A stretch of DNA of 32,000 nucleotides from Candidatus Saccharimonadota bacterium (GCF_965196625.1 NZ_OZ239769.1:330001-362000); one strand, 5' to 3'; numbered from the stretch's first letter, positions 1,823-25,774 are shown. Numbers and translations are program-made. The notes: generated by a model not told the origin, from the sequence alone.

Positions 1823-3174
1823 TTAAACAAAATAAAATGATTGATTACAATAGTAAAGAAGAAAAACGATTAAATCATCCAGTTATCAAATCTATTAGGT
1901 ATGCTATCCTAGGCTCCTTTTTATTTGGGCTTGGTCGTGTGACCGAGTGATGGGTAATCCCTCCTATAGAATATAAATTTATCAAACAAAAGTTAGCTGC
2001 TATCAACCAATCTACGCCCTGGCCACAGCGGCTTTCTCTAGAAGAAAAACTTACTTTGATTTTACAAGAGGTAGGCCACTTTAAAAGAATATCACAATTA
2101 TTTAAGTCTAAGGATTTCGCCATAATGTACCGGTATCCTAAAAGCTATCTTCCCTATGTACTGAAACTTTTAAAAAATCCTGCTGTAAAATCTGGGCTTA
2201 AAGCTATAGCCATTTATGCTATGGAACAATTAGAAGTAGCAGATTATTTAAACTTACTCAACAGTGCATGGGAAAGTTACCAAAAAAAAGAGCTAGATAG
2301 AGAACTGTTGGAACCTATTTTATATTACGAATTAGCTGGAGACCACCCTATCGTCAAACATTATGCTGATCCTAATGTATCCCATCTATTAGAGACCATA
2401 TGGCACGCAAGCAATGGTGCCAGTAAAACGCAATTAGGTAAAATAATATCAGGAGAAATATGGAAATTATGGCAGCAAAAAAAGGTAGGTGCTAGCTTTC
2501 AATGGGGTAAAAAACCTTTCCCTTTTATAGCGACCCTAGATAAAGTTTTATCAAAAGTTAAGGCAGGCTTTACCAAAGATTCAGAAAATGGGGAAGGTGT
2601 ATTATGGTGTGAACCATTTATGTTGTTCTATGAACATCCTACCTATTACGTAGAAGATGCTCATGCCTTTTTAAACCAATCTATAGAGGATTATCACTAT
2701 AGAAAGAAATATAGAGGTTGTGCTACCTTTGGCATGGCATTGGGTATTGTGATGAATGCTTTTAGAAAACTGGACCGTGAAGCCTTCTTGCAATTATTCT
2801 ATCAAATGACTAAGTTACATATACCTCATAAAAGCGGTTACTGTAAGATGGGTACTTGTTACCCAGCATTTTCACTTACCGGTGGTAAATTGGTAGAGGA
2901 ACGGTTCCCAACTATCTATGATACCCTATTGCTTAAGCCTTTTCCTGTCTATGCTAGTGGCAATATATTCACTAAAGGAATGTGGTGTGATATGGATGGC
3001 AAGGGACTTCCCTTTGATGGACTCCCCCTCATTTTATATAGGCCAATAGCATACTATCATGATTATCTATTAAAAGACATAGAGGAGCTACAAACATTGT
3101 ATGGCATTCCTGCTTATTCAAAAGAAAGACCTTTCATTTCTTTTACCTATTTTGATCACCCTTCATCAGGGTAA
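1819..3174 (+). pseudogene. Paralog B of the orphan family, interrupted by an in-frame TGA at 1948-1950. The intact remainder is the track ORF 2056..3174, which uses a TTG start.
   Basis: The ATG at 1819 overlaps the paralog A stop (ATGA). Frame 1 then reads MIKQNKMIDYNSKEEKRLNHPVIKSIRYAILGSFLFGLGRVTE-TGA-WVIPPIEYKFIKQKLAAINQ... The TM-like segment (AILGSFLFGLG) and KLAAINQ align with paralog A FIIGAFLLGTF and KIAAIDF, so homology spans the stop. Confidence 0.55.
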
Positions 3175-6100
3175 ACGCACACACTATTTTCATCTTGCGC
3201 TCTACTTTTACAAAGCTCCAGCGCTGCTTTGGCTGCTTCTTCTAATGCCGCTCCTATGGCTGGGTCTAGATAGGTATGGGCTATTGGCACATCTATAGCC
3301 AGGGTTTCCCGCGCCATATGGGCTACTTCTGGTAGGTAGGCATAACCTGCTGCATGGCGCAGGTCATAGAGTCGTTCAGCTAGTTTGATAAAGAGTACAG
3401 AAAGCTGTATGTGCTCTTCTCTAATCGCTTCTTTCAATCGGTTCTGCACATAGAGCAAAGAAGGATGGTCTAAGTCTTGGCGTTTATCTACCCCTATCAC
3501 ATTCAACACAAAAGCATAAACCCCTAAATTATAATGTTTTTTGATATAAGAAAGCGGTAAGCAGGTATGGCGCACCAGTTCATAGAGCAAAGCAGCATAG
3601 ACTACTTTAGGCGCGTGTACAACCCATTTTACCACCAATTCGGCAATGCCTACCGCACGTACATAAAACAATTGACCGGAAGCATGCTGCTTAAAACCAA
3701 AGTATTGCCGCAACAATAAAAGCAATCCAGAAATAGCCCCTATATCAATAGGATCTGATCCATGAGAAGATTTGCAGACATAGTCATGGAATTGCATCAA
3801 CACCATCATCGAGTCGGCTTGCTCTTTAGGCGTAACAGGCGCCGCTGAGGTTAAGCAATCCAACGGTAGTTTCGCGGTCATTTTATCACGAATGGCTGTA
3901 ACATCAGTAGGGAGGACCAATAAGATCGCCTGTTCCGTACCATCAACCGGGTATGTTACATAGCCATAGTGGGCACGCACCATACTGGATATCGTGTCTT
4001 GCTGTAGATCTATCGATGGTGGCATTTCTTTTTTCCCCTGAGGCTCCATAACATGCATCAGATCATGATAGAGCGCTTCTACTAGAGGAAAGTCTTTAGG
4101 GGGAAGCGCAGATTGGCCTATTGCGAAAGCAATCGCTTGGAAAAGCATACTAGGAGGCGTGCTACCATCAATCGCATCTGCTTGTTCAAATTGCAAAGAG
4201 GTCTTGTGCAGTTGTATACGAACAATTGGTGCACTAGGGCTATCTAACTTACCGCCCACACGTAAAACGGCCTGAGCCAACATGTAGACTACCTGATGGA
4301 TATCACATACCATATAAGAAGAGGGCACCCCACTAGGGACCTTTATTTTTTCTACCAATAGCCTAGGTGGATCAGCTGCCTCTTGCGATAAAGCAAACTC
4401 TACCTTACGGATCAGCTTATCTAAAGTAATTTTAGTAGGCTGCAAGAGTGCATGATCCTTAGCCTTTTCTTTTCGAGTAAAAAAGCTCACCCAATCATAA
4501 AGCTTATGGATAATACCTTGAAAATCTTGCTTATATAAGGGCATATTGCCATCTAAAAAAGAAATAGATTGCTCCATTTTATGGATAACCTGAGCTAAAA
4601 TAGAACTATTCCCCTTAGCTAAAGCACCAGCCGTGGAAAACATGGCTGAATCATAGAGGGATGCTTTTAGTGCACGGGATGCGTTAAGCTTTTCTCTACC
4701 CTTAAGGTAGATAACTTGATCCAAGTAACGCTTGTTCTTAGCTTTTAGGTAAACAAAAATGCCAAAAATAAATAATCCTAATCCCAAACAAAGCAGCAGC
4801 AGCAACGCCACACCTGATGGCGATAGCACCAACGTGAGTGACTGGGTAGCATAAACAGCGCTAAGATAGATGGCCATAACTAGGGTAACCCCTAAAAAAG
4901 CTACACCAAGATATAAAGGAAGTACCAGCAAAGTGACCACCAAATGGGCCAAAGACAAGCCTAGGGTTAAGAAAAGATTGGTGCCATGCCACCAGTGCCA
5001 AAGCACATTAATAGGAAAGCAAAAAGATAAACCGACCACCCAAAATAGACCCGCTAACCAAGTTGGAATGGTTTTTATCTTTTCTGAGACAAATGTGCTA
5101 TACCCCAAAAAGCAGCTCCCTATCAAAAGTTGAGCGATAAGCCAACAACCATGGTCGGCAATAGAGGCTACGCAATAAGTCAGCAAATTACTGATGAGTA
5201 GATAGCATCCCACATATATCAGCATAGCATGGCTAGGCTGCAGCTTAGCAAAAGTATCTTTTATATGCAGCAATCCATTTTTAATCGCTTCTTTGCGGGC
5301 GTGCCTCTTACGCGCATGCGCTTGTTGCATTTGTATAAACGCATGATCGGGTCCAACCCATCCTTTACCTTCTGGTTGTTTGAATAGATAGTGTGCAACC
5401 ATCATGGCCAGACCATTGGCCAACATAGCAACAAAAGAACCATCTATACCAGTTACTGATTTAACCCATTCATTCCAAGCTAAAATAGCTAATACACCCG
5501 TAACCATACCCATTAACGCCGTGCGAGCAGTACCCCGAAAACCAAAAATAGCCAAAAGAAAAGGAGCAGTTATGATGGGTATAGAGAGATCAAAAATGAT
5601 TATAATTAAGCCTAGTAAATCATTACAACAAAAGGCCAAAATCATAGCCAATAAGCCTACAACCAGCGCAACCGTTTTAGCAAGCAAGAGCTGACGCGTA
5701 TAAGAAATGTCTTTTACACCTCGTATACTTTCCAGTATATCATGGCTAACCATAACGGCACAGGTATTCAATTTAGAATCAGCTGTGGACATAGTCATAG
5801 CCAATAGAGCGATAGAAATAAACCCTTTAAAAAAAGAGGGCACATTAGCCATTATATAACTCCAAATTTTTTCTACCGGCAACATGGGTTCCTTCACAAA
5901 AACAAATAGGCCAATTAAAAGGATCAAAGTCTGTATAAATAGACGAAAAAAGCTAGCGTACAAGAAGACTTTTTTAGCTTGAATAGGGTCAGCAGACATG
6001 TATACCCTTTGAATAGTTGTAGGTTCCACATAAGATACTACAGCAGATAGAATCAGTGCAACCATAGCCACAAGCTTCGTATCAAAATGAAATACCGTAC

Positions 6101-6770
6101 TGAATTGAAAATTTTCATGACTTTGTAAAAAAGGGATAATTTCTGTAGAAGGCTTATCTAGCTTGTGAAAAATAAATAAACCCAAAAGAGGTATGATCAT
6201 AGTAAAGGTTATAAACTGTACTACATCAGTAAAGGTAACGGCACGAATACCCCCAAACATCGCATAGAAAATAAGGATTAAAGTAGAGCATATAGTTACT
6301 ATCCTGGGATCAATCGAGTCTACACACATACCAATGGCCATAGACATTACATTAATTTGAATGGTAACATTGGCAATAGATGCGCAAATACTGGCTAGCG
6401 CTACAATAATCCTTGGGTACTTACCATATACTTTACCTATCGTCTCTGGCATAGAGATATGCTGCATAAATGGGCTCATACGCACAGCAAGTAGGCTAAT
6501 AACCCAAAAATCAAAGGCCATACAAAGTGAGAATACGATCCAGTAAAGACCAAGATTCGAAACCTGCTGTACAGTACGCACCAGCCCTCCACCTCCATAC
6601 GTAGTAGCCAATAACGTAGCTACCAAGGTAGCGGTAGCAAATTGTTTATTCCCTATTGCATATTCGCGCAATGTGGTTACCTTTTTGTTAAAACTACAAT
6701 AAACACCTACCACCAAGGTTACCAACAAAAAAGCAGCCACTATAAATAGTGGAGTATTAAAGTATATCAT
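3156..6770 (-). CDS. Intact long fusion protein (copy P1): SSF/SLC5 sodium:solute symporter core, about 6 extra TM helices, a HisKA/HATPase_c-like module, and a degenerate RelA/SpoT-type HD domain
   Basis: The uninterrupted ORF runs to 6803 (TTG). The ATG at 6770 (MIYFNTPLFIVAAF) aligns with the start of paralog P2 (MICLSIPLFIIVAF). The SSF-like core covers aa ~1-490. A further hydrophobic block follows. Then comes an H-box-like ILAQVIHKMEQSISF (His codon 4581-4583) and an HATPase-like stretch (HQVVYMLAQAVLRV ... ISSMVRAHYGYVTYPVDGTEQAILLVLP). The C-terminus matches RelA/SpoT HD motifs: AALLYELVRHT vs AALLHDVIEDT, VLFIKLAERLYDLRHA vs VILIKLADRTHNMRTL, and MARETLAIDVPIAHTYL vs IARETLEIYSPLAHRLG. 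Confidence 0.8.
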   Translation of the reverse strand: MIYFNTPLFIVAAFLLVTLVVGVYCSFNKKVTTLREYAIGNKQFATATLVATLLATTYGGGGLVRTVQQVSNLGLYWIVFSLCMAFDFWVISLLAVRMSPFMQHISMPETIGKVYGKYPRIIVALASICASIANVTIQINVMSMAIGMCVDSIDPRIVTICSTLILIFYAMFGGIRAVTFTDVVQFITFTMIIPLLGLFIFHKLDKPSTEIIPFLQSHENFQFSTVFHFDTKLVAMVALILSAVVSYVEPTTIQRVYMSADPIQAKKVFLYASFFRLFIQTLILLIGLFVFVKEPMLPVEKIWSYIMANVPSFFKGFISIALLAMTMSTADSKLNTCAVMVSHDILESIRGVKDISYTRQLLLAKTVALVVGLLAMILAFCCNDLLGLIIIIFDLSIPIITAPFLLAIFGFRGTARTALMGMVTGVLAILAWNEWVKSVTGIDGSFVAMLANGLAMMVAHYLFKQPEGKGWVGPDHAFIQMQQAHARKRHARKEAIKNGLLHIKDTFAKLQPSHAMLIYVGCYLLISNLLTYCVASIADHGCWLIAQLLIGSCFLGYSTFVSEKIKTIPTWLAGLFWVVGLSFCFPINVLWHWWHGTNLFLTLGLSLAHLVVTLLVLPLYLGVAFLGVTLVMAIYLSAVYATQSLTLVLSPSGVALLLLLCLGLGLFIFGIFVYLKAKNKRYLDQVIYLKGREKLNASRALKASLYDSAMFSTAGALAKGNSSILAQVIHKMEQSISFLDGNMPLYKQDFQGIIHKLYDWVSFFTRKEKAKDHALLQPTKITLDKLIRKVEFALSQEAADPPRLLVEKIKVPSGVPSSYMVCDIHQVVYMLAQAVLRVGGKLDSPSAPIVRIQLHKTSLQFEQADAIDGSTPPSMLFQAIAFAIGQSALPPKDFPLVEALYHDLMHVMEPQGKKEMPPSIDLQQDTISSMVRAHYGYVTYPVDGTEQAILLVLPTDVTAIRDKMTAKLPLDCLTSAAPVTPKEQADSMMVLMQFHDYVCKSSHGSDPIDIGAISGLLLLLRQYFGFKQHASGQLFYVRAVGIAELVVKWVVHAPKVVYAALLYELVRHTCLPLSYIKKHYNLGVYAFVLNVIGVDKRQDLDHPSLLYVQNRLKEAIREEHIQLSVLFIKLAERLYDLRHAAGYAYLPEVAHMARETLAIDVPIAHTYLDPAIGAALEEAAKAALELCKSRAQDENSVCVYPDEG
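3203..4549. repeat. About 1.35 kb high-identity block shared with 6983-8338 (C-terminal signalling module of P1)
   Basis: Aligned by eye, 3241-3420 vs 7024-7203 show 4 mismatches in about 180 nt. Identity falls sharply beyond about 4549 / 8338. Confidence 0.8.
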
Positions 6771-6962
6771 AAAGCAAAGGATTATAAACCTAAAAAATAC
6801 CAATACAAGAAAATGGTAAGGATTTTTAGCTAGAAATCAAAAAAAGGAGATGGACTTTAAAATGTATTTATAAAATAATATCAAAGGGATCGGTTATGCA
6901 AGGGGTCTAATCATGGACAAAACTTTACAAAATATATCTAAGCAATTTTTAGATACAACCTA

Positions 6963-9900
6963 CTAATTATCTTGTTCTTTAGCTTTACTTTTACAGAGCG
7001 CTAGTGCTGCTTTGGCAGCTTCTTCTAATGCCGCTCCTATGGCTGGGTCTAGATAGGTATGGGCTATTGGCACATCTATAGCCAGGGTTTCCCGCGCCAT
7101 ATGGGCTACTTCTGGTAGATAGGCATAACCTGCTGCATGGCGCAGGTCATAGAGTCGTTCGGCTAGTTTGATAAAGAGTACAGAAAGCTGTACATGCTCT
7201 TCTTTAATCGCTTCTTTCAATCGGTTCTGCACATAGAGCAAAGAAGGATGGTCTAAGTCTTGGCGTTTATCTACCCCTATCACATTCAACACAAAGGCAT
7301 AAACCCCTAAATTATAATGTTCTTTGATATAAGAAAGCGGCAAACAGGTATGGCGCACCAGTTCATAGAGCAAAGCAGCATAAACTACTTTAGGCGAGTG
7401 AAAGACCCATTCCAAGACCAATTCGGCAATGCCTACCGCACGTACATAAAACAATTGACTGGAAGCATGCCGCTTAAAACCAAAGTGTTGCCGCAACAAT
7501 AAAAGCAATCCGGAAATAGCCCCTATATCAATAGGATCTGATCCATGAGAAGATTTGCAGACATAGTCATGGAATTGCATCAACACCATCATCGAGTCGG
7601 CTTGCTCTTCAGGCGTAACAGGCGCTTCTGCGCTTAAGCAGTCTAGCGGTAGTTTCACGGTCATTTTATCACGAATAGCTGTGACATCAGTAGGGAGGAC
7701 CAATAATACCGCCTTTTCCGTACCATCAACCGGGTATGTTATATATATATAGCCATAGTGGGCACGCACCATACTGGATATGGTATCCTGCTGTAGGTCT
7801 ATCGATGGTGGCATTTCTTTTTTTTCCTGAGGGTCTATAACATGCATGAAATCATGGTAGAGCGTTTTTACTAAAGGCAAGTCTTTAGCAGCAAGCGTAG
7901 ACTGGCCTATTACGAAAGCAATCGCCTGGAAACGCATACTAGGAGGCGTGCTACCATCAATCGCATCTGCTTGTTCAAATTGCAAAGAGGTCTTGTGCAG
8001 TTGTATACGAACAATTGGTGCACTAGGGCTATCTAACTTACCGCCCACACGTAAAACGGCCTGAGCTAACATGTAGACTACCTGATGGATATCACACACC
8101 ATATAAGAAGAGGGTGCCCCACTAGGGCCATCTATTTTTTCTACCAATAGCCTAGGTGGATCGAATACCTCCTGCAATAGCGCAAACTCTATTTCATGAA
8201 CCAATTGATCCAAAGTAATTTGGATAGGCTGCAAAAGTGCATGGTCTTTGGCTTTTTCTTTTCGGGTGAAAAAGCTCACCTAATCATAAAGCTTATGGAT
8301 AATACCTTGAAAATCTTGCTTATATAGGGGCATATTGCTGTCCAAAAAGGAGATAGACTGCTCAACTTTATGCACTGCTTGCGCTAAAATAGAACCATTG
8401 CCTTTACATTCCGTGCCAGAGGTGGAGACCATTGCCAAATCATAGAGAGAGGACTTGAACTGACGGGATGTGCTAACCGCTTCTCTACCCTTTAGGTAGG
8501 TTACTTGGCGTAGGTAACGGTTGTTCTTCGTTTTAAGGTAAACAAAAATACCAAAAATAATTAGGCTTAAGCCCAAAAAGAACAACAACAATAACGCAAT
8601 AGTTGAGGGTGCTAAGACAAATGTTTTAGTACAATAGACAGAGCTAAGACAGATGGCGATGCATAGAGTAGCCATTAAAAAACTGACACCGAGGTATAAA
8701 GGCAGTACGAGTAAGGTTACTACCAAATGAGACAAAGATATGCCTAAGGTTAAAGCAAGATTGGTGGCATGGGACCAATGCCACAGGACATTAATCGGCA
8801 GGCAAAAGGCCAACCCCATTACCCAAAATAGACCAACCAGCCAACCTATACTAGATTCGACCTTTGCTGATACAAAGGTGCTATACCCTAACAAACCAGC
8901 ACCTACTAAAAGTTGCAGTGTAAGCCAACAATCATGATCTGAAATAGAGGCTACAAAATAAATCAGTAAATTGCTGATGAGTACATAAAACCCCACACCC
9001 GTTAGCGTAGCACGACTGGGTTGAAACCTATGCAAGGTCTGCTTGATATCTAGCAAACTATTTTTAATCGCTTCTTTTTGAGCAGCCCTCTTACGGGCAC
9101 GCGCTTGTTGCATTTGTATAAAGGTATGGTCGGGCCCCACCCATCCTGCACCTTCTGGTTGTTTAAATAGATAGTGGGCAGCTAGCATAGCCAAGCCATT
9201 GGCCAACATAGCCACAAAAGAACCATCTATACCTGTTGGTGGCTGAACCCATTCGTTCCAGCCTAAAATGGTTAGTACCCCTGTAGCCATACCGATTAAA
9301 GCGGTTTGGGGGGTACCGCGAAAGCCAAAAACAGCTAAAATAAAGGGGGCAGCTAGTATAGGAACCTTGCAGTTAAGAGACCAATACATTAACTTTAACA
9401 AATCTTTACATCTAAAAGTTAGCAACATAGCCGATAGCCCTACGGTTAACGTCGTCCATCTGGCTATTTTAAGTTGGCACTGATCAATATTTTGGGTTGT
9501 CTTTTCTGTTCCATTTTCTATTGATTTTATAAAGTTCTTGACAAGATCATGACTCACCATAACGGCACACGCATTTAAACAAGAATCAGCTGTAGACATC
9601 GCCATAGCAAGTAAGCTAACTGCAACAAATCCTTTAAAGAAAACGGGAATATGAGCGGTTATATAATCCCAAATTCCCACTTTTGATAACCCTGGCGCTC
9701 CTACAAAAGTAAATACAGCAATTAAAATTATAAAAAACTGAATAATAACAGCAAAAGTAGCAGCGTACGAAAAAACCTTTTGGGCCTGCATAGGACCAGA
9801 AGCCATATAGACTCGCTGCATAAGAGCGGGATCTACTATATTACTGGGTATATCACCCAGTAACAATAGTACTATACTGGCTAGGTGGGTCTTAGAAAAG

Positions 9901-10573
9901 AATAATTGTCTAGCTGAAACTTAGTATGGCTCTGTAGTGCAGGAACAATTGAAGAAACTGGCTTACCTATCTTTACAAAGATAAACCAACAAAGTAGAGG
10001 AATAATAATGGAAAAAGTCACAAACTGTATTATATCTGTAAAAGTCACAGCACAGACACCTCCAAAGGTAGAATAAAAAATAAGCAATAAGGTACAAAGA
10101 ATAGGTATTACATAGGGGTTAGCTAAAGTCACACATATGCCAATAGCCTGGGACATTATGATGATTTGAGAAGTAATTACAATAATCGTACGACAAATAC
10201 CAACAAATACAGTCATAACTCTTGGATACTTACCATACATATCACCCATTGTTTCTGCTATAGAAATATGATGCATAAATGGGCCCATACGTAAAGATAA
10301 CTTGCTGATCGTCCAAATACCTATAGGAACTAAGAGCAAAATGACTATAAACCACAAGCCAAGGTCATATACACATTCTACATTACGTATTAATCCTCCT
10401 CCTTCAAAAAAAGTAGCCAATACCGTAGCCACTAAAGTAGCGGTAGTAAATTGTTTATTCCCTATTGCATATTCTCGAAAGGTGGTCCCTTTTCTAGAAA
10501 AGTAAATACCTATAACTAAGGTTAATACTAAAAAAGCAACTATTATAAATAGGGGGATGCTCAAGCAGATCAT
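6963..10573 (-). pseudogene. Second long SSF-HK-like-HD-like paralog (P2), split into three ORFs by a frameshift near 9897-9915 and a TGG->TAG nonsense codon at 8280-8282
   Basis: ORFs 9881..10573, 8280..9866 and 6963..8279 are colinear with P1. The N-ORF ends KFQLDNYSFLRPT*, while the next frame reads FFSKTHLASIVLLLGDIP upstream of its listed start, aligning with P1 FHFDTKLVAMVALILS. P1 has ctt tat gat tgg gtg agc (YDWVS) where P2 has ctt tat gat tag gtg agc. Confidence 0.8.
6983..8338. repeat. Partner of the 3203-4549 high-identity block (C-terminal module of P2)
   Basis: Same alignment as above. It contains an in-frame (TA)3 expansion at about 7741-7750 that changes YGYVTYP to YGYIYITYP. 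Confidence 0.8.
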
Positions 10574-10663
10574 AATATTAAAAATAGTTATATGAATAGT
10601 ACAGATTGTATGGTAAGGATTCCCAAGTAAAAATCAAAAGTAGCCTTTGATGCAACGCATCAG

Positions 10664-12027
10664 CTAGATGCATAGCGAACCCAACCTACCCCTTTCGGTT
10701 GTTTGAATAGATAGTGTGCGGCCATCATAGCCAATCCATTGGCTAACATACAAACAAATAAAAGAACCATTTATTCCCGTTACAGGTTCAACCCATTTAT
10801 TCCAAGCTAAAATGGCTAAAACACCTGTGGCCATACCGATTAAAGCGGTACGGGAACTGCCTCGAAAACCAAAAATAGCCAATAAAGCTGGGGCAGTGAT
10901 TACTGGAATAGAAAAGGAAAAACCTAGCATCAACAGTGCTAAGAGATCATCACAATAAAAGGCCAAAAACATACTAGATAAGCCCACGACGAGTGTGGTC
11001 GATCTAGCTATTTTAAGTTTATAGACATCAGCCATTTCTTTTTGTATGGTGCCTAAAATATCATGGCTAACCATCACAGAGCAAGCATTTAAACAAGAAT
11101 CAGCGGTAGACATCGCCATAGCAAGTAAGCTAACACAAACCACACCTTTAAAAGTAGGTGAAACATTAGTGATTATATAACACCAAATATCTTCAATTGG
11201 TAGCGCTTCCCCTCCTCCTACAAAAACAAATAGGCCAATCAGACGGATAAAACTAGAAATCACAACACTTAACAAACAGACATATAAAAAAACTTTTTTT
11301 GCTTGAGTAGGTCCAGAAGACATATAGACTCTTTGCATAATTTCAGGCGTCCCCATATCAGGAACCATAATACATAAAATCATCGCAACCCTACTCAGTA
11401 GTTTCGTATCAAAATGGAGTAAACTACTCAATTGAAATTTTTCTTGCGTTTGTAGAAAGGCAACTACCTCTATAACGGATCTACCTGTTTTTTTTAACAT
11501 CAACCAAGCCAAAAATGGAATTACTATAGTAAAAGTCAAAAACTGGAAGATATCTGTAATGGTAACTGCACGAACGCCTCCAAAAGTATCATAGAAAATA
11601 AGGATTAAGGCAGCAAAAATGGTAACCACCCGGGCATTAACCAAATCTAGGTCGACACAAATGCTAATTGCTTGGACCATGGCGATAATTTGTATGGTAA
11701 TACTGACGATAGACCTAGCAATACCAAACAGAGCCGTAATAATCCTTGGGCACTTACCATAGACATTACCCATCATTTCTGCAATAGAAAGGCTTTGCAT
11801 AAATGGCCCCATACGGCCCATCAACCGGCTAAAAAGCCATATACTGAAACTATTCACAAATAGAAAAAGGATCCAATAAAGGCCAAGCTTATGCACATAC
11901 TGTACATTACGTATCAGCCCTCCTCCACCATAGTAAGTAGCCAACACCGTAGCCACCAAAGTAGCGGTAGTAAATTGCTTATGCCCTACTGCATATTCCC
12001 GAAAGGTGGCCTTTCCTGATCTAAAGG
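10664..12027 (-). pseudogene. Short SSF-core paralog (P3), N-terminally truncated and frameshifted near its 3' end
   Basis: Homology to P1/P2 starts only at GKATFREYAVGHKQF, so TM1 is missing. Around 10749-10762 there are 4 extra nt relative to P1 (tttatttgtttgtatgttagcc vs tttgttgctatgttggcc), which shift the frame. The restored frame reads ANGLAMMAAHYLFKQPKGVGWVRYASS-TGA. Confidence 0.7.
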
Positions 12028-12029
12028 AT

Positions 12030-12362
12030 CCTATTATCGCGCTAGATATAGAGGAACACAAAGGAGCTGATTATAGATTGGTTCAACGTGTTACAGAAGA
12101 AAGTGTTCGGTACCTCAGGGATAAAGCAAATAGAACACCTTATATTTATACCAGAACATCCTTCTGGGATGCCTATGTATCCGATACGCCCGATATCGTT
12201 GCACAATGTCCGCTATGGATAGCTAGATGGCGTGACCATCCACCCTTACCAAACGAGTTGCCAAAGGGCTGGGCTAGCTGGAAAATATGGCAGTATTCTG
12301 ATCAAGGAACGGTTCCAGGTATTAGAGGTCCAGTAGATCTGAATAGGATGGCCACAACATAG
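12030..12362 (+). pseudogene. C-terminal fragment of a GH25-family muramidase (lysozyme)
   Basis: IALDIEE ... PLWIARW ... WKIWQYSDQGTVPGIRGPVDLNR matches the typical GH25 C-terminal half (LD.E, LWIA.Y, WQYs..g.v.Gi.g.vDlN). The N-terminal ~90 aa and an ATG start are absent. The fragment abuts the truncated P3 head-to-head. Confidence 0.65.
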
Positions 12363-12455
12363 TCCCATTTTTCTTTTCCGGGCTATTTTTTTAAATTGTG
12401 GAGCATACATTGAGCGGAAAGTTGCTAACCTATATTTCACTTTATTTTTTTTGTC

Positions 12456-13673
12456 ATGCCCAATCCATTACCACCTTCCACTTCTGCTGCGCATAAATGG
12501 GCGAGTAGCCATTTACAAGTCGCTACGCAAGTGGTACATGCTGGCGTGAACCCAGAACCCTATACCGGTGCAATGCTTACCCCTATTTTTCAATCATCCG
12601 TATTTGTACAGGAATCCATTGAAAACTACCTCGAAAAGGGACATTCCTATTCTGGATCAAGAAACCCTACTGTTGCAGTGCTTGAAGCAAAAATCGCTGC
12701 TTTGGAAAAAGCAGAAGTGGCCTATTGTTTTGGTTCGGGAATGGCGGCTATTGTGACTACTATGGCAACCTTTTTACGCCATGGGGACCATTGCATACTC
12801 TCTAATGGTTGTTACGCCACTACACAAGAAGTAGCCCGTGACCTTTTTGGGCAACTTGGCGTAACTTTTTCTTTTGTAGACTTTACCGATTTAGCCGAGA
12901 TAGAAGCAGCGATACAATCCAATACGAAGTTACTTTTTTCCGAATATCCGACCAATCCAACACTTGCTTTAACCGATTTGGCTGCGGTTAGTGCGCTAGC
13001 CCATCAAATAGGTGCCAGACACGTTTGTGATAGTACATTGGCCTCGCCTATGGTGATTTGTCCATTAACATTTGGTGCAGATATCGTCATCCAATCTACC
13101 ACCAAATACTATGATGGACATAATATGACTATTGGTGGCGCAGTTGCTTGTGCATCTGCAAAAGATGGCCCTCAAATTTTTACCTATAGAAATAGGCATG
13201 GGAGTATCATGAGCCCTATGGTTGCTTTTTTTACCTTGCAATCCATTAAGACCATGCATTTACGTATACGCGCACAATCTGAAAATGCGGCACAAATTGC
13301 AAGATTTTTAGAAGAACACCCTAAAGTAGAAAAAGTGGGTTATCCAGGATTGGGTAGTTTTCCGCAAAAACCATTGGCAGATAGGCAACATAATAATGGA
13401 CTTCATGGTGGTATGTTATACTTTATACTGAAAGGAGGAGCCGATGCAAGCAGCCAATTTATGAAGACACTGCATCGTCCATGGAGTTTTGGAGCCAATT
13501 TAGGGGGTGTGGAAAGCTTGATTTCTTATCCCGTTGTAATGTCCAATGGAACAATGGATTCCATACAACTGCAAGCCATTGGCATAAGCGATGGCTTTGT
13601 ACGCGTCTCTTGTGGGATTGAAGCTATACAAGATCTTATTGATGCACTTGAAGCAACCTTTAATGGCTGCTAA
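12456..13673 (+). CDS. Cys/Met-metabolism PLP-dependent enzyme (cystathionine gamma-lyase/beta-lyase or methionine gamma-lyase type)
   Basis: 405 aa with family hallmarks: IFQSSVF, YSGSRNPT, EYPTNPTL, and a PLP-lysine motif QSTTKYYDGH. Exact specificity cannot be judged from sequence alone. Confidence 0.85.
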   Translation: MPNPLPPSTSAAHKWASSHLQVATQVVHAGVNPEPYTGAMLTPIFQSSVFVQESIENYLEKGHSYSGSRNPTVAVLEAKIAALEKAEVAYCFGSGMAAIVTTMATFLRHGDHCILSNGCYATTQEVARDLFGQLGVTFSFVDFTDLAEIEAAIQSNTKLLFSEYPTNPTLALTDLAAVSALAHQIGARHVCDSTLASPMVICPLTFGADIVIQSTTKYYDGHNMTIGGAVACASAKDGPQIFTYRNRHGSIMSPMVAFFTLQSIKTMHLRIRAQSENAAQIARFLEEHPKVEKVGYPGLGSFPQKPLADRQHNNGLHGGMLYFILKGGADASSQFMKTLHRPWSFGANLGGVESLISYPVVMSNGTMDSIQLQAIGISDGFVRVSCGIEAIQDLIDALEATFNGC

Positions 13674-13697
13674 AGCTTACATTAAGCTAGATCGGTT

Positions 13698-15137
13698 TTA
13701 TTTTGTTGGATATTGATAGCCAAGCTTTATCTGCTCCTTTGGTTGTGGCAATAGATAGCGCGCAGCCACCATAGCTAGGCAATTGGCTACCATACTAGGA
13801 AAAGCACCATTGATATCTGTAATCGGCTCCACCCATTTATTCCAACTCCAAATGGCCAATATACCTGTAACCATACCGACCAAAGCAGTTCGGGAAGTAC
13901 CTCGAAACCCCAAAACAGCTAAAATAAAAGGCGCCGTTGCTATAGGTATAAAACAATCAAAATACAATTTACATAGCTCCATTAAATCATTACAGTAGAC
14001 GCTAAGCAATAGCGCAACCATGCCCATCAGTAACGCTGTTAGCTTAGCCAGCCGGATGTGATAACGATAAGGAATTTCTTTTTGCCCCATCATACCTTCT
14101 ATGATATCATGACTAAACATAAGAGAAGAAGTACTTAAATAGGTATCCGCTACAGAGATCGCTACAGCAAGTAGGCTGATGGCAACAAAGCCCTTTAAAA
14201 TAGGGGGCATATCTGTTATGATATAGCTCCATATTTCTGCTAAAGACAATTGGGGAGCAACTGCAAGGACAACCATACCAAATACTAGAATAAAAAGCTT
14301 CATAATAACTCCAAAAATACCCGTATAGAAGAAGACGCTACGCGCCTGAAAGTGATCAGAAGACATATACACTTTCTGCATCATCAAAGGCTGTATACAA
14401 GCAACCTGATTAGCTAAAAATAAGGATATGATGGACAGGGCATTAAAGTCCGAATGGCATAGGCTACTCAAATGAATTTTTTCTTGACTATCAAACAATC
14501 TTACAAAGAGCTCTAATGGTGACTGATCAATACGGGTAAATATCCAACAAGACAAAATTAAAGGAGTAATTAAAAAAGCAGCGAGTTGCGCAAGATTGGT
14601 TAGACTAAAAACACGCATCCGCCCAATAACCGTATAGGAAGCAAGGAGCAAAATGGTTAAAAAAGTAATGATATTTGGTTCAACCCAGTCTAAACAGATA
14701 CTGATTGCCAAAGAGATGATATGTATTTGAATGGCAACAACCACAATAGAGCAGCAAATATTGGATAATGATGTAAGGACCATCGGATATCTGCCATACA
14801 TGCGTTTTATGGTTTCCGACATAGATAGGTTATGCATAAAAGGGGCCATACGTAGTGCCAAGGAACTGACCATCCAGAAAGGCATACAACTACTTAAAAA
14901 CTCGAAAATGATCCAAGGGAGGCCAAGGTTATGGACCTGCTGTACCGTACGTACTATTAATCCACTTTCTAAAAAAGTAAATAATAGAATATAGACCAAG
15001 AGAGGAGTTTCATGCCGCTTAGTGCTTACCACATAGTCTCGAAATGTAGTGGGAGTGATGGAAAAATAGGATAGAAAAAGCCATTCAAGCAATAAAAAAA
15101 CCACCACCATGAAAATGGGGATATACAAGGATGTCAT
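13698..15137 (-). CDS. Stand-alone SSF/SLC5 symporter-core paralog (P4), the most divergent copy
   Basis: The ORF is open to 15197 (TTG). The ATG at 15137 (MTSLYIPIFMVVVF) aligns with the P1/P2 starts. It is colinear with the P1 core and stops right after the conserved YL.(K/P)QP(E/K) boundary. The GGGG motif of P1/P3 reads LESG here. Confidence 0.7.
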   Translation of the reverse strand: MTSLYIPIFMVVVFLLLEWLFLSYFSITPTTFRDYVVSTKRHETPLLVYILLFTFLESGLIVRTVQQVHNLGLPWIIFEFLSSCMPFWMVSSLALRMAPFMHNLSMSETIKRMYGRYPMVLTSLSNICCSIVVVAIQIHIISLAISICLDWVEPNIITFLTILLLASYTVIGRMRVFSLTNLAQLAAFLITPLILSCWIFTRIDQSPLELFVRLFDSQEKIHLSSLCHSDFNALSIISLFLANQVACIQPLMMQKVYMSSDHFQARSVFFYTGIFGVIMKLFILVFGMVVLAVAPQLSLAEIWSYIITDMPPILKGFVAISLLAVAISVADTYLSTSSLMFSHDIIEGMMGQKEIPYRYHIRLAKLTALLMGMVALLLSVYCNDLMELCKLYFDCFIPIATAPFILAVLGFRGTSRTALVGMVTGILAIWSWNKWVEPITDINGAFPSMVANCLAMVAARYLLPQPKEQIKLGYQYPTK

Positions 15138-15328
15138 AAAAAAGTAAATTTTTGCTGTATCAAAATTGATTTTAGGTATTTTGGATGATAAAAACAAATG
15201 GTTGAGGGATTTACATCACACATAAGCTATACTAAAGTGCACATATACTAGCATATACTAAACAAAGATGATCCAATATTTTGGTTATATTTACCTAGAT
15301 ATATATTCATGCAAAAGTAAAAAGTTAA

Positions 15329-15907
15329 ATGCCACAAACTACTGTTCATAAACTGGACCAAACATTATTGCTTATATTAAACCAATGGAACCATCCAGGG
15401 ATGGACCTTTTTTTTAAACTGATAACTAGTACTTTTTTTTGGACACCGCTCTATAGCTTGCTTCTATTTTTGATTAGAAAAGCATTGGGTTGGAAGGGTG
15501 TGGTCTTCTTCGCATTAACGATTGTTATTTCAGATCAAATTTCTGCTACATGGCTCAAGCCACTTTTTGCAAGATATCGGCCCTGCTATCTTATTTCCCA
15601 GCTACATCTTATAGGTAGCCATACAGGCCTCTATGGTTTTCCATCATCTCATGCGGCCAACACCTATGCCTTTGCGATGCTTTTTTGGCGAATCTTTAAA
15701 AATAGATACAGATTCAGTGGCTTATTTTTTATCTGGGCTACTATTGTTTCCTACGGTCGAATATATGGCGGGGTACACTACCCATTAGATGTTTTGGCAG
15801 GTGCTATAGTAGGGTGCTGCGTAGGGATATTCATGCATCATATCTATCAAAAAAGTAATAACCTAAATAGCTTACCAAAATGGCCAAGAAAAGGGTACCT
15901 AAAATAG
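15329..15907 (+). CDS. PAP2-family (type 2 phosphatidic acid / undecaprenyl-diphosphate) phosphatase
   Basis: All three PAP2 motifs are present: KPLFARYRP, PSSHAAN and YGRIYGGVHYPLDV. It is a multi-TM protein. Confidence 0.8.
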   Translation: MPQTTVHKLDQTLLLILNQWNHPGMDLFFKLITSTFFWTPLYSLLLFLIRKALGWKGVVFFALTIVISDQISATWLKPLFARYRPCYLISQLHLIGSHTGLYGFPSSHAANTYAFAMLFWRIFKNRYRFSGLFFIWATIVSYGRIYGGVHYPLDVLAGAIVGCCVGIFMHHIYQKSNNLNSLPKWPRKGYLK

Positions 15908-20365: not shown

Positions 20366-20713
20366 ATGAAAGAAAACACCTATAAACCCATTAAAAAACG
20401 AACCCTATTTGGTCAGTTGGAAAAGCGATTGTGTTTAAACGGCATCTCTTTAGACACCCCCTACTACCTATCTCGTTTGTTTTATCTTTTCTTTTTGGGG
20501 TTGCTTTATATTTGGAATGCACATTATCATGAAAAAATGTTACATAAAATCCATCAACTCCAGCCCGTTGTAGATGGCCTACGCGTAAAGCATATGCGCT
20601 TGCAGTCCACTTATATGTTTGATAGCAAACAATCAGAAGTGGCTAAAAAAGTTGCCCTCTTAGCCATTTATGAAAGCAAAGTCCCCCCTTATATCATCAA
20701 AGCTGGTAAATAA
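20366..20713 (+). CDS. ftsL: FtsL-like cell-division protein (small bitopic protein upstream of ftsI)
   Basis: 115 aa with a single TM (LFYLFFLGLLYIW) followed by a coiled-coil-like region. It sits directly upstream of, and overlaps, ftsI. Confidence 0.6.
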   Translation: MKENTYKPIKKRTLFGQLEKRLCLNGISLDTPYYLSRLFYLFFLGLLYIWNAHYHEKMLHKIHQLQPVVDGLRVKHMRLQSTYMFDSKQSEVAKKVALLAIYESKVPPYIIKAGK

Positions 20714-22796
20714 AGTGACCTTTACTAAAGAAATTTTACTGCGTGCCAGAATAATTTTTCTTTCTGCTCTATTTTTTGTAGCCCTTATTACATGGAAAAT
20801 CATCCACTTACAATTTGTAGAAGTAGATAAATGGCGCAACTGTGCCAAAGCAGCGCAACTGACCTATAAACCTATTTTAGCATCCCGAGGCAATATTTAT
20901 GCCCATGATGGTGCTTTATTGGCTACTTCCCTCCATTTTTATACCGTTGCTTTAGACCCTACTGTAGCCTCAGATGAGGCCTTTAGAACAGGCATTGATC
21001 CACTCAGTCAAGCATTGTCTGATTTTTATAAAGATCACCCTCCTGCATACTATAAGAAACGGATTGTACATGCCCGTGCTAAAAAACAAAGATACCTGTT
21101 GTTGCATACAGGCCATATCACCTATGAAGAAAAGAAAAAAATGAGCTGTTGGCCCATTTTTAACCAAGGTAGGTTCAAGGGAGGCGTGATTTTTGAAGCG
21201 CAATACAAACGCTACAACCCCTTTAAAGAATTGGCTAGGCGAACCATTGGTATCCATAGAGCAACACATGGATCTGGGTTAGAATATTCCTTTAACGAAA
21301 CTTTAAAAGGGGTGGATGGTAAAGCACTATACCAAAAAGTCGTTGGGGGCAATTGGAAAAAAGTTCCAGAAAGCAACATGTTTCCTCCTGTACACGGATC
21401 TGACTTGGTGACTACACTAGATATTAACTTGCAGGATGTAACCCAAAGTAGTTTGTTGGCTGTTCTTGAGCAAACCAATGCCCAAAATGGTTGCGCCATT
21501 GTAATGGAAGTGGCTACTGGTGCCATTAAAGCAATGGCTAATTTATCTCGTATGGAGTCTGGGCAATATATAGAAGCATATAACTATGCCATTGGCAACC
21601 AGGGCACCGTTGAACCAGGCTCTATTTTTAAACTGGCCTCTATGTTGGCTTTATTGGAGGAAACAGAGTGGCCACTTACCAAACCTATAGATACTGGAAA
21701 TGGGATGGTGCAATTTTACAATAGATGGATGAAGGATGTAAAAAAAGGAGGGTATGGACTGCTGAACTTACAGGAAGTATTTGAGAAATCCTCTAATGTC
21801 GGCATCTCTATGGCCATTCAAGAAACATTTGGTGCAAATCCTCAAAGGTTTATTGACTATATTGAACGATTGGGCATGCATCAGCCCTTAGCCATTGAAT
21901 TAGCTGGAGAGGGTAAGCCTTATATGATCACGCCCAAAAGCAAAATGTGGAGTGGTGTGACACTCCCGTGGCTCTCTATTGGGTACAACTTACAGATTAC
22001 CCCCCTTCAGATATTGGTGCTATACAATGCAGTGGCCAATAATGGTAAAATGGTTAAGCCTATGTTTGTACAACATATACAATCAACGCATCGGATCAGT
22101 TTTCCAACTACCATTTTACAAGAAAAGATCTGCTCAGATGCAACTTTGCGTAAACTAAAGCTAATGTTAGAAGGTACGGTAGAGAGAGGGCTTGCACAAC
22201 GGATTAAACATGGGTTTTACAAAATAGCTGGTAAAACAGGCACCGCCCAAAAGTTGGTAGGTGGAAGGTATACAGACCATCACCTTACCTCATTTGCTGG
22301 TTATTTTCCAGCAGATCATCCACGTTATAGTTGTATTATTGTGGTAGATAGCCCACAAGGAGAAAGCTTTCGATTTGGTTCAGAAGTGCCTGCACCTATA
22401 TTTAAAGATATTGTGGATAGAATAGCTGGAAAAGATTTGTATGCAAGAAAACCCATTAATGGATCAGTAGGTGTGCATCCCACCACCCTTTCTAACGTCG
22501 GTTATACCAACGAGTTAAATTTTTTGTATCAATGCTTTCAGCTTCCTATACCTAAAAACTTCAGTCTAGAAGAGCAGTGGGGCAGTCTGAAAATCAATGC
22601 TGAAGGAGGAAGCTTTGAGCCATTCAAACGCCAATCTTCAAAGGAAATACCCCATGTGTTAGGTATGAAACTACGTGATGCACTCTTTTTACTAGAGCGA
22701 AATGGTTTAAAGGTTACGGTAGAGGGAAACATACATGGGGTGGTTTCCACACAATCTAAAGCTATTTCTAACGAAGTGACCATTTTATTAAAGTGA
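20670..22796 (+). CDS. ftsI: Penicillin-binding protein 3 / FtsI transpeptidase with a C-terminal PASTA-like domain
   Basis: SxxK (GSIFKLAS), SxN (KSSNVG) and KTG (AGKTGTAQ) motifs. The start is uncertain: ATG 20670 overlaps ftsL by 44 nt, and GTG 20715 is an alternative. Confidence 0.9.
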   Translation: MKAKSPLISSKLVNKVTFTKEILLRARIIFLSALFFVALITWKIIHLQFVEVDKWRNCAKAAQLTYKPILASRGNIYAHDGALLATSLHFYTVALDPTVASDEAFRTGIDPLSQALSDFYKDHPPAYYKKRIVHARAKKQRYLLLHTGHITYEEKKKMSCWPIFNQGRFKGGVIFEAQYKRYNPFKELARRTIGIHRATHGSGLEYSFNETLKGVDGKALYQKVVGGNWKKVPESNMFPPVHGSDLVTTLDINLQDVTQSSLLAVLEQTNAQNGCAIVMEVATGAIKAMANLSRMESGQYIEAYNYAIGNQGTVEPGSIFKLASMLALLEETEWPLTKPIDTGNGMVQFYNRWMKDVKKGGYGLLNLQEVFEKSSNVGISMAIQETFGANPQRFIDYIERLGMHQPLAIELAGEGKPYMITPKSKMWSGVTLPWLSIGYNLQITPLQILVLYNAVANNGKMVKPMFVQHIQSTHRISFPTTILQEKICSDATLRKLKLMLEGTVERGLAQRIKHGFYKIAGKTGTAQKLVGGRYTDHHLTSFAGYFPADHPRYSCIIVVDSPQGESFRFGSEVPAPIFKDIVDRIAGKDLYARKPINGSVGVHPTTLSNVGYTNELNFLYQCFQLPIPKNFSLEEQWGSLKINAEGGSFEPFKRQSSKEIPHVLGMKLRDALFLLERNGLKVTVEGNIHGVVSTQSKAISNEVTILLK

Positions 22797-24289
22797 TGAT
22801 GCACAGTCTTACACAACTTCTAGTAGGCGTCCCTGTAAAAAAGATATTGGGTCCAACAGATATAGCTATAGAAACCCTTTGTTTTGATAGCCGTAAAGCA
22901 GTAACCCATTCTTGTTTTGTCGCCCTAAATGGCAGCCAATTCGATGGCCATAACTATATAGCTATGGCTATAGCAGCAGGTAGTAGTGCGGTTGTATGTG
23001 CCCGTTTGCCTCAGTCTCTTGAGCCCACTGTAACCTATATAGTGGTTGCCTCTACCCCTAGTGCACTAGGGATGATGGCTGCCAACTTTTATGACCACCC
23101 TAGCAAAAAACTGAAAGTAGTAGCCGTTACCGGTACCAATGGTAAAACGACTGTTGTACATCTCCTGTATAATATGGTTATGAAGATGGGTTATAAAGCA
23201 GGCATGTTTTCTACCATATGCAATAAAGTTTTAGACCAAACCTATCCAGCTAGCCATACCACCCCAGATGCATTGCAGCTGCAGTCCACTTTACATCTTA
23301 TGGTAGCAGCCGGTTGCAGCTACTGCTTTATGGAAGCAAGTTCCCATGCCATCGTTCAAGAACGGTTAGCAGGTATCGTTTTTACAGGTGCTGTATTTAC
23401 CAATATCACCCATGAGCACTTAGACTACCATCTTGATTTTGCAAGTTATATTCAAGCTAAAAAAAAACTTTTTGATGGCTTGCCTGCTACCGCCTTTGCC
23501 CTTATGAACCAGCAAGATAGAAATAGTTCCATTCTGCTGCAGCATTGTAAGGCTAAAAAGTTTACTTTTTCACTTCAAGACACTGCGGACTTTCGAGCAA
23601 AAATAGTGACCAATACATTGTATGGGTTAGAGTTGGACCTTTTTCAGAACGCCATTGCTAATGGCCTAGCCATAAACCACCAATCGGTTTGGTTCCAGCT
23701 AATCGGTGCATTCAATGCCAGCAACCTATTGGCTGCTTATGGCGCCGCTCAGTTATTGGGCTTGAATAGCCTGGAAAGTTTGGTAGCGCTTTCAGCCATC
23801 CCCCCTATTCTAGGCAGAATGAACCGCCTTCATCATATAAAATCCAAACAAGTTGTAATCGATTACGCCCATACACCAGATGCCATTCAAAAAGTAATCG
23901 CTACCTTGCATTCCATGCTTCCTGCGTACAGTAGACTCATTACCATTATGGGTTGTGGCGGCAACCGTGATCAAGAAAAGCGCGTTATGATTGGCCAGAT
24001 TCTGGCTAAAAATAGTGATATGGCTATATTCACCAGTGATAATCCAAGAGATGAAGACCCACAGAAAATTATACATGCCATGCAGCAAGGTGTCTATGCA
24101 TCAGACCTTTCAAAGGTGCTCCATATAGCAGATAGAGCGATGGCTATTAAAACCGCCTGTTTGCTTGCGCATGCAAATGATCTTATTTTAATAGCAGGAA
24201 AGGGCCATCAATATTATGAAGAAATTAATGGTGTGCAACACTACTTCTGTGAAGCGCAAATTGTTCAAGATAGCTTAAGTGATAGATAA
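22793..24289 (+). CDS. murE: UDP-N-acetylmuramoyl-L-alanyl-D-glutamate--2,6-diaminopimelate ligase
   Basis: VTGTNGKTT P-loop, Mur ligase middle and C-terminal domains, and a DNPR motif (SDNPRDEDP) typical of meso-DAP-adding MurE. The start overlaps the ftsI stop (GTGATGATG). Confidence 0.9.
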   Translation: MMMHSLTQLLVGVPVKKILGPTDIAIETLCFDSRKAVTHSCFVALNGSQFDGHNYIAMAIAAGSSAVVCARLPQSLEPTVTYIVVASTPSALGMMAANFYDHPSKKLKVVAVTGTNGKTTVVHLLYNMVMKMGYKAGMFSTICNKVLDQTYPASHTTPDALQLQSTLHLMVAAGCSYCFMEASSHAIVQERLAGIVFTGAVFTNITHEHLDYHLDFASYIQAKKKLFDGLPATAFALMNQQDRNSSILLQHCKAKKFTFSLQDTADFRAKIVTNTLYGLELDLFQNAIANGLAINHQSVWFQLIGAFNASNLLAAYGAAQLLGLNSLESLVALSAIPPILGRMNRLHHIKSKQVVIDYAHTPDAIQKVIATLHSMLPAYSRLITIMGCGGNRDQEKRVMIGQILAKNSDMAIFTSDNPRDEDPQKIIHAMQQGVYASDLSKVLHIADRAMAIKTACLLAHANDLILIAGKGHQYYEEINGVQHYFCEAQIVQDSLSDR

Positions 24290-24404
24290 AAACCCATCCT
24301 TCTGGCTATACAACCTCTGGTTACACTGCTCAATGTATTTTTTTAAATACTTGTTTTTATAATAAAATTTTTGTAGTATTAAAATTGTTTTATAAATATG
24401 AAAA

Positions 24405-25601: not shown

Positions 25602-25688
25602 GAATCGTTCCATATGGCAATTTTTGATTAGGTATTTTTTGTGTGTATTTATGAAGCAGATAATTTATATCTATTAATTCCCATAAAA

Positions 25689-25763: not shown

Positions 25764-25774
25764 AATAATCTGAT

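Follow-up and report, generated by a model that had tools for sequence, protein, structure and literature searches.

A Cardinium symporter locus probably composed of four old paralog lineages that have exchanged parts

How do four related symporter genes, two intact and two broken, come to lie on one strand within 12 kb of a symbiont genome? The question is raised by a 32,000-nucleotide stretch of DNA, NZ_OZ239769.1:330001-362000 (GCF_965196625.1), here called the window, in which a first-pass annotation had recognized four paralogs of the SSF (sodium:solute symporter) family, P1 to P4. According to the map of open reading frames (ORFs) and three-frame translation, all four copies are on the minus strand, at coordinates that match those of that annotation almost to the base, and P1 and P4 are intact and P2 and P3 broken, as it had described. 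Comparison with related loci indicates that the copies are probably four old paralog lineages of the expanded Cardinium/Amoebophilus SSF family that have since exchanged parts, rather than products of recent local duplication. The four copies are as follows.

3156-6770, minus strand: P1, an intact long paralog of 1204 aa comprising an SSF core, six transmembrane (TM) helices, a kinase-like module and an HD-like domain (ORF; Pfam SSF and HD_4)
6963-10573, minus strand: P2, an inactivated long paralog and three-part mosaic (three ORF pieces; mosaic map)
about 10660-12030, minus strand: P3, a pseudogene of a core-only paralog (ORFs and translations)
13698-15137, minus strand: P4, an intact core-only paralog of 479 aa, NCBI protein P0121 (ORF; NCBI annotation)

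Pfam matched SSF to each of the four copies and, at the end of P1 and P2, also HD_4, the family of RelA/SpoT hydrolases. Against the SSF profile (PF00474, TC 2.A.21; cut-off 22.8 bits), P1 scored 62.3, P3 45.9, P4 33.8, and two pieces of P2 31.0 and 21.3 bits. P1 matches NCBI protein P0001, from the Cardinium endosymbiont of Nabis limbatus, with 100% identity. Its positional ortholog is P0002 of the metagenome-assembled genome (MAG) CP101107; the same 499-aa gene follows both. The ~100 full-length relatives of P1 are all in Cardinium, and related loci were found in Cardinium genomes only. The parts of P1 are as follows.

5367-6770, minus strand: SSF core of P1, aa 1-468 (Pfam SSF at aa 48-436)
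5271-5393, minus strand: junction linker AHYLFKQPEGKGWVGPDH..., marking the end point of core-only genes (alignment of long and short members)
4695-5273, minus strand: extra TM block of P1, aa 500-692, about 6 helices (hydropathy scan; AlphaFold2 helices)
3846-4694, minus strand: degenerate histidine-kinase module of P1 (DHp and CA-like), the middle domain, aa 693-975 (Foldseek; hhalign chain)
3180-3830, minus strand: Rel/SpoT-type HD domain of P1 with its catalytic motifs replaced, aa 981-1197 (Pfam HD_4, 34.7 bits)

We investigated the relationships of the copies using neighbour-joining trees of 112-132 family members, computed with 200 bootstraps from one MAFFT alignment. In the core tree, no window copy paired with another window copy. 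The P2 core grouped with P0016, P0029, P0032 (Sogatella), P0034, P0044 (Bemisia) and P0070, with bootstrap values of 97-99%. P3 grouped with the full-length proteins P0005 (Tyrophagus strain, cTPut), P0027 (Oedothorax), P0052 and P0058 (100%), and P4 with P0122 and P0123 (100%) inside a clade of core-only proteins alone (76%). Pairwise identity among the cores of P1, P2 and P3 is 56-57%, and P4 is the most divergent copy, at 42-43% identity to the other window cores. All copies fell in a single Cardinium-type clade with respect to bacteroidotal outgroups (100%), which rules out independent acquisition by horizontal transfer, the alternative that the first-pass annotation had offered. On these trees, the four cores appear to be old paralogs that predate the split of the sampled Cardinium strains.

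The sequence of P2 is not that of a simple descendant of any one of these lineages. The following features bear on its history.

6976-9352, minus strand: segment of P2 homologous to P1 3193-5569 at 84.8% DNA identity, a gene-conversion or recombination tract (self-BLAST, sliding window, dS gradient, tree of the middle and HD domains)
8280-8282, minus strand: in-frame nonsense codon of P2, TGG>TAG (direct comparison with P1)
9900-9910, minus strand: frameshift of P2, approximate position; the local sequence is AATTATT, not a homopolymer (reading frame shifts from ...FQLDN to LFFSKTHL...)
10610-10638, minus strand: conserved upstream element TTTGATTTTTACTTGGGAATCCTTACCAT before P2 (related copy at 6813-6841 before P1)

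In a sliding window, the DNA identity of P1 and P2 was 55-65% over the 5' core, rose to 79-85% from P1 position ~5535, ranged over 67-86% across the TM block into the beginning of the middle domain, and reached 97% at the 3' end. The step at ~5535 lies ~50 codons upstream of the linker. Synonymous divergence (dS) followed the same course: in P1 codons, it was 1.40 for core codons 1-400 and 0.77 for 401-468, then 0.95 for the TM block, 0.39 for the middle domain and 0.12 for the HD domain, with omega at ~0.2 throughout the gene. Because dS falls from 1.40 to 0.12 at constant omega, the gradient reflects sequence exchange and not stronger constraint on the tail. A 60-aa sliding comparison resolved P2 into three zones. 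Residues 31-420 are of the P0016/P0032 type. Residues 420-720 carry a 'type A' TM block common to P1, P0002, P0003 and P0005 (63-85%), a stretch in which the orthologs of P2's core are only 22-50% identical to P2. Residues 720-1200 are P1-like (78-97%). Consistent with this map, P1 and P2 were sisters only in the tree of the middle and HD domains (bootstrap 100%), with P0002 as the next branch (91%). That the positional ortholog of P1 stands outside this pair indicates that the P2 tail was overwritten after the split of the Nabis and MAG lineages. By these comparisons, P1 or a P1-like sequence appears to have been what overwrote it. P2 keeps 114 of the 115 family-conserved core columns, with one deviation, and its inactivation appears to be recent.

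The element upstream of P2 is one copy of a 29-nt sequence, TTTGATTT.TA......AATCCTTACYAT, that occurs ~45-70 nt upstream of the start codons of P2, P1, P0005 and P0027 (window 10610-10638 and 6813-6841, minus strand; L010 9923-9951 for P0005; L002 9940-9968 for P0027). It was not found before the other long family genes in six further loci, and could be a promoter or 5'-untranslated-region element of one sub-group.

The separate histories of core and tail extend to the family as a whole. In P3 and P4, the stop follows the last core helix by a few codons, at the point from which P1 and P2 run on as ...GWVGPDH; the alignment bears out the earlier observation that the shared end of the short copies is the start of the extension. 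This end point is not special to the window: at least 14 core-only members in other Cardinium genomes end within ~0-30 residues of it. Core-only genes have arisen more than once, as the P4 clade, the lineage of P3 and a cTPut gene of 476 aa (short476), the group P0127/P0129/P0133, P0126, and P0130. The linker stretch (FGFRGTSRTALIGM...MLANGLAMMAAHYLLKQPxGxGWVGPD) is strongly conserved, its KQPxGxGWVG motif even in distant SSF-histidine kinases, and a direct-repeat family covering the junction stretch (D8) includes all four window copies. The 13-helix core ends at the linker, so a gene cut short immediately beyond that point, and nowhere else, still encodes a complete transporter, which explains the shared end point. 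The proposal that core and extension are separable modules meeting at one junction was upheld, and the extension was lost there in the P3/short476 lineage, which is nested in a clade of long genes. Judging from the P1/P2 breakpoint, crossovers probably concentrate around the linker stretch.

Among 85 long members, the identities of core and tail correlated at ~0.5, compared with 0.95 for the middle and HD domains. In the Philonthus spinipes strain, P0014 and P0020 have cores that are 56% identical and tails (TM block, middle and HD domains; ~700 aa) that are 100% identical; no other case in the family shows very recent exchange of tails so clearly. In DK880, paralog pairs have cores of 47-52% and tails of 82-95% identity. 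P0034 and P0044 share 100% of their cores and 41% of their TM blocks, and P0005 and P0027 share 78% and 38%, respectively. The TM block falls into three sequence types (36, 17 and 15 members) that do not follow the core lineages. Overall, these comparisons argue that tails are homogenized within genomes as cores stay ~50% identical, and that the two parts evolve separately.

P3 probably belongs to a second core-only lineage, younger than that of P4. It lacks TM1 and any start codon fitting the family N-terminus, and a 4-nt insertion (ATTT) at 10756-10759 shifts its frame; once the frame is restored, its last residues read ...KQPKGVGWVRYASS* and the stop codon occupies 10660-10662. It keeps 109 of the 115 conserved core positions (four substituted, two gapped), which indicates that its inactivation is recent. 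A counterpart lies in cTPut (L010), where the gene order is MreB, short476 and the long gene P0005 (1204 aa). The closest relatives of short476 are the P0005 core (71%) and P3 (70%), and it ends ...KQPEGAGWSR*, a few codons from the end of P3. At the DNA level, the P3 tail, a 90-nt spacer and the P2 start align with the short476 tail, a 172-nt spacer and the P0005 start, and the end point is the same. P3 and short476 both read TCG straight after GGTTGG(G/A)(T/G)T, followed by remnants of the extension's first codons; both genes would fit a common ancestor that suffered a small deletion within ...GGTTGGGTT[GGACC]CGAT... and a later loss of the tail, by then untranslated. In a four-point test over 1356 aligned nucleotides, the grouping (P3, short476)|(P0005, P0027) was favoured with 72-80% bootstrap support. 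At that level of support, P3 is likely the decayed counterpart of short476, the core-only state being older than the decay. The dN/dS ratio (nonsynonymous to synonymous divergence) was 0.20-0.26 among P3, short476 and P0005, which indicates that the short lineage remained functional through the greater part of its existence. A recent deletion of the P3 tail in the Nabis genome, first drawn from the long core relatives of P3, was rejected because the cTPut locus shows the core-only state to be shared and older.

P4 had been counted among the copies at different stages of decay. It is indeed intact, core-only and the most divergent; decay is ruled out by its selection, its orthologs and its neighbourhood. 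The orthologs, P0122 (MAG CP101107) and P0123 (Philonthus), have lengths of 479 and 485 aa and identities of 84% and 76% to P4, with dN/dS values of 0.15-0.19 at dS 0.57-0.86. P4 differs at 36 of the 115 family-conserved core positions. Nearly all of these changes are common to its orthologs, and they therefore represent fixed divergence and not decay. P0124 is a second member of the same short clade in the Nabis genome. In three genomes (L006, L007 and L008), the P4-type gene divergently adjoins a PAP2 gene, which in the window is the following.

15329-15907, plus strand: PAP2 phosphatase gene, divergent neighbour of P4 (Pfam PAP2)

From these comparisons, P4 appears to be a working gene of an old, conserved core-only subfamily under purifying selection.

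To characterize the tail, we modelled P1 aa 456-1204 with AlphaFold2 from a 74-sequence alignment (mean pLDDT 78.9). The model has about six TM helices, a long helical hairpin, an alpha/beta domain and a helical C-terminal domain. According to Foldseek, its top matches in the PDB were the cytoplasmic regions of the histidine kinases HK853, RetS, ZraS, DivL, CpxA and YycG (E 1.6e-5 to 5e-4 over ~250-290 columns), and the Rel and SpoT hydrolase domains ranked after them. In hhalign comparisons, the Cardinium middle domain matched a bacteroidotal SSF-HD clade (P0104-P0111) with a probability of 99%, and this clade matched true SSF-histidine kinases (P0112-P0120) with 96.4% over 231 columns. The direct match of the middle domain to the true kinases was weak (probability 11%, E 0.0026), so kinase homology is drawn from the intermediate clade and the fold. 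The position aligned to the NHEIRTP of the true SSF-kinases, the H box, is a low-confidence loop without a His; the N-box Asn is lost in Cardinium, and the G1 and G2 boxes are lost in both the Cardinium and the P0104-P0111 clades. The sequence DHALLQP was considered as an H box and rejected, as alignment with the true SSF-kinases puts it at the start of the CA domain.

The C-terminal domain of P1 scored 34.7 bits against HD_4 (cut-off 27.2), and the family profile matched Rel hydrolase structures over ~175 residues (E 1.4e-28 for B. subtilis Rel). In Rel, SpoT and Mesh1, the motifs HP, HD, ED, ADR and HN hold Mn2+-coordinating residues, and changing them abolishes hydrolysis. All five are altered in each of the 85 long Cardinium-type members (HP>RA, HD>Y[EDG], ED>R[HYR], ADR>AER, HN>YD): RxSGEPFxLHP has become HxSGQLFYVRA, LLHDxVEDT has become LLY[EDG]LVR[HYR]T, and KLADRxHNMRT has become KLAERLYDLRH. 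The outgroup P0104-P0115 keeps the canonical forms of the three motif stretches. The replacement residues Y1063, R1038, E1132 and D1136 are invariant in 84-85 of the 85 members which, together with an omega of ~0.2, indicates that the HD domain has been remodelled yet kept. When the cytoplasmic half was searched against 1.84 billion representative proteins, only 144 matched at E<=1e-3, 43 of them at E<=1e-10; the module is thus rare. The term 'signalling extension' used in the first-pass annotation is apt by ancestry, but the catalytic motifs of both kinase and hydrolase are all missing.

The cTPut contig JANAVR010000003 also encodes, at L010 13917-17366 and convergent to P0005, an SSF-HD protein of 1149 aa and outgroup type; it is divergent, at 28-30% identity to P0104/P0105, and keeps LHDTVED and ADRLHN. 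By sequence, at least one Cardinium genome, that of the Tyrophagus putrescentiae strain, appears to have both a catalytic-type and a degenerate-type fusion.

In the history that we propose, homologous recombination between paralogs would handle core and tail as separate cassettes, which accounts for tails that are homogenized within a genome and cores that remain diverse. In the P3 lineage, a long gene would have been duplicated in tandem, and one copy would have been shortened at the linker that follows the last core helix, losing its tail. P2 would join the core of one lineage to a TM block of a different type, its 3' half having been overwritten by P1 sequence. The core is a putative Na+-coupled importer of host metabolites, and different cores probably have different substrates. 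The family profile matched CHT1, SiaT and vSGLT structures over the core (E 3.5e-23 to 4.4e-10), and none of the substrate-specific NCBIfam models reached its cut-off (PutP 41 against 515, PanF 26 against 328). The tail probably derives from an SSF-sensor-kinase of the CbrA/CrbS kind (PMC7918813) that gained a Rel-type hydrolase. With the catalytic motifs lost in the symbiont lineage, it probably catalyses neither reaction, and it has been kept all the same. It would most likely serve as a non-catalytic dimerizing or regulatory module: the DHp-like hairpin suggests dimerization, and homogenization of the tail within a genome suggests a shared partner or contacts between tails.

Several points weigh against this reading. 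The trees are neighbour-joining trees from one alignment, and their deep nodes and the placement of the P1 core (bootstrap <20%) are without support. By raw distance, P3 is nearer to the long genes P0005 and P0027 (dS 0.68) than to short476 (dS 0.87); a sister relation of P3 and short476 thus needs faster evolution of the short copies. Parallel truncation of the two at one site is possible, and at the junction short476 and P0005 are identical over 80 nt, a sign that local conversion occurs. The exchanges behind P2 may have run in either direction, in one or several events. The spacer motif before P2 had been taken as private to P2 and P0005, a view weakened when a looser search gave related copies before P1 and P0027. 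The loss of canonical motifs is no proof of inactivity or of a lack of ligand binding.

The reading first given to the locus, a young tandem array built by repeated local duplication in which the copies are closest relatives at successive stages of decay and P4 is the oldest and decaying, agrees with four copies on one strand within 12 kb, with 85-97% identity of P1 and P2 over their 3' 2.4 kb, and with two of the four copies being pseudogenes. The first-pass annotation had looked to a phylogeny to decide the matter, and its recent birth-and-death array does not survive one: the cores are 42-57% identical with dS >1, P2, P3 and P4 are closer to genes of other strains (97-100%), P4 is under purifying selection with orthologs of equal length, and the arrangement P3 > P2 is common to cTPut. 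We consider a young array distinctly unlikely. Its broader description of a lineage-specific transporter family with live and dead members holds, as one Cardinium clade contains the pseudogenes P2 and P3 beside intact copies. It is very unlikely that P2 and P3 are really intact and that errors of sequencing or assembly created their frameshifts and stop. Over 3.6 kb, P2 shows only two lesions, and its core is almost fully conserved, as such errors would leave it, but the lesions of the two genes are a G>A substitution, an AATTATT indel and a 4-nt insertion, none in a long homopolymer; P3, moreover, has lost its 5' end and lies against a truncated GH25 gene; and P1 and P4 are annotated proteins among the matches where P2 and P3 are not. 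We give hardly any credence to stronger purifying selection on the tail as the cause of the 3' rise in P1/P2 identity. The HD region is the most conserved family part at the protein level (74-93% between paralogs), as such selection would predict, but dS itself drops, the core and tail trees are incongruent with 97-100% support for each, and the core orthologs of P2 carry a different TM block.

The SSS/HD pieces could instead be mobile elements resembling MITEs (miniature transposable elements with inverted repeats), as suggested for cTPut (PMC12039267). In keeping with that suggestion, Cardinium genomes hold many fragments, with 81 elements in cTPut (PMC12039267) and many truncated matches of 640-915 aa, and transposases lie near some copies (L008). 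It is nevertheless highly improbable for this locus: the whole window contains no inverted repeats of >=30 nt and the array no transposase, orthologs and conserved neighbours exist for the copies, and pseudogene decay with recombination accounts for the fragments. Another alternative concerns the tail, which might still be an active signalling enzyme with non-canonical residues, making the long proteins transceptors with catalytic output. Purifying selection on the tail and the near-invariance of the replacement residues would suit such an enzyme, as would the intact HD site of other Bacteroidota relatives and of one cTPut gene. We regard it as unlikely, given that the phospho-acceptor His and the N, G1 and G2 boxes are absent and that all of the Rel/SpoT motifs checked are changed. 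Somewhat more tenable, though still doubtful, is a cassette system in which solute-specific cores are mounted on one genome-wide constant tail, kept identical by gene conversion for docking on a single partner or on other tails. In such a system the tail, a degenerate kinase joined to a degenerate Rel hydrolase, would act as a regulatory device that binds a ligand (a nucleotide alarmone, for instance) and reports on or gates the uptake of nutrients; the symbiont has very few classical regulators.

Four old lineages that exchange parts, the reading that we prefer, have practical consequences. Both Cardinium and Amoebophilus are obligate symbionts inside host cells and subsist on metabolites imported from the host. 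For each genome, a single tail construct may stand for all paralogs, and cores could be assayed separately for substrate. Whole-gene trees of the Cardinium symporter family will mislead, and the reported fragments are read more simply as pseudogenes and recombination products than as mobile elements.

The four copies are not contiguous. The earlier description of an array within 12 kb is correct as to strand and positions, but two plus-strand genes lie between P3 and P4.

12006-12362, plus strand: Glyco_hydro_25 (GH25) fragment, C-terminal half only (Pfam match to profile positions 87-180 of 180)
12456-13673, plus strand: intact pyridoxal-phosphate (PLP) enzyme of Cys/Met metabolism, interrupting the array (Pfam Cys_Met_Meta_PP, E 6e-112)

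The GH25 fragment is divergent to P3, both lack their 5' ends, and they abut at ~12010-12030, where a single rearrangement junction probably removed the 5' ends of both. The G+C content is slightly higher across 12006-13673 (0.44 versus ~0.39). Window positions 20670-31153, encoding PBP, a Mur ligase, RNase H, Big_5, GlyRS and a metallophosphatase, are collinear with L010 1-7207. In cTPut, the symporter pair (short > long) comes directly after this region and MreB. Its counterpart in the Nabis strain, P3 > P2, sits 10-20 kb off and inverted, which points to a rearrangement with one end in P3. Next to P1, plus-strand ORFs at 587-1822 (411 aa) and 2056-3174 (372 aa) had no Pfam match and no tblastn match in ten related Cardinium loci, and may be strain-specific genes. 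A scan of the array found fewer promoter-like sites than in shuffled sequences and no sensibly placed terminator, Bacteroidota promoters being outside the models of the scan. Clusters of paralogs are common in other Cardinium genomes and differ in make-up: Philonthus L008 11507-17305 reads short gene (the P4 ortholog), carbonic anhydrase, long gene and DDE transposase, and cEhis1 L001 866-13552 has two long genes on the same strand, 5.6 kb apart.

The window array is an ordinary case of a published family expansion, and its family-level features vary the SSF-sensor-kinase theme. Twelve such symporter genes have been reported in Cardinium hertigii cEper1 and 19, of unknown function (PMC8831229), in Amoebophilus asiaticus, and the family is among the largest and most highly expressed of these bacteria (PMC5698495, PMC8831229). 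Complete genes and 81 SSS/HD-domain fragments, proposed as MITE candidates, were described in cTPut (PMC12039267). The genes studied here belong to the same family: P1 is 55-71% identical to Cardinium entries named 'sodium:solute symporter family transporter / HD domain-containing protein', and intact and fragmentary copies are numerous in each genome, as in cTPut (PMC12039267). Those papers treat the genes only as transporters of unknown substrate or as MITE candidates. In the searchable literature, neither the two architectures nor the degenerate kinase/hydrolase tail was found described, nor was the decoupling of core from tail, and the modular recombination and degenerate tail appear to be undescribed so far. 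In the SSS sensor histidine kinases CbrA and CrbS/MxtR, the same N-terminal SSF is fused to a C-terminal DHp and CA fold (PMC7918813), and bacteroidotal SSF-kinases have the KQPxGxGWVG linker in common with the Cardinium family. The CbrA/CrbS type has STAC and PAS domains, whereas P1 has neither by Pfam (SSF and HD_4 only, at E<=0.01) and has about six TM helices instead. P1 also differs in having none of the H-box His, N, G1 and G2 boxes and no receiver domain, and in adding a C-terminal Rel/SpoT-like domain. The P1 tail matches the same fold as RelA/SpoT-homolog hydrolases (HD_4; Rel, SpoT, Mesh1), but the Cardinium version has all catalytic motifs replaced, lacks a synthetase domain and is tethered to a membrane transporter. 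An inactive pseudo-hydrolase domain is also carried by E. coli RelA. Finally, concerted evolution by segmental gene conversion is known in bacterial multigene families. The Cardinium symporters show the same near-identical segments among the paralogs of one genome, with the rest divergent. They differ in that the homogenized segment is a whole domain block, the tail, with the P1/P2 boundary near the conserved linker, which yields a variable core on a constant tail.

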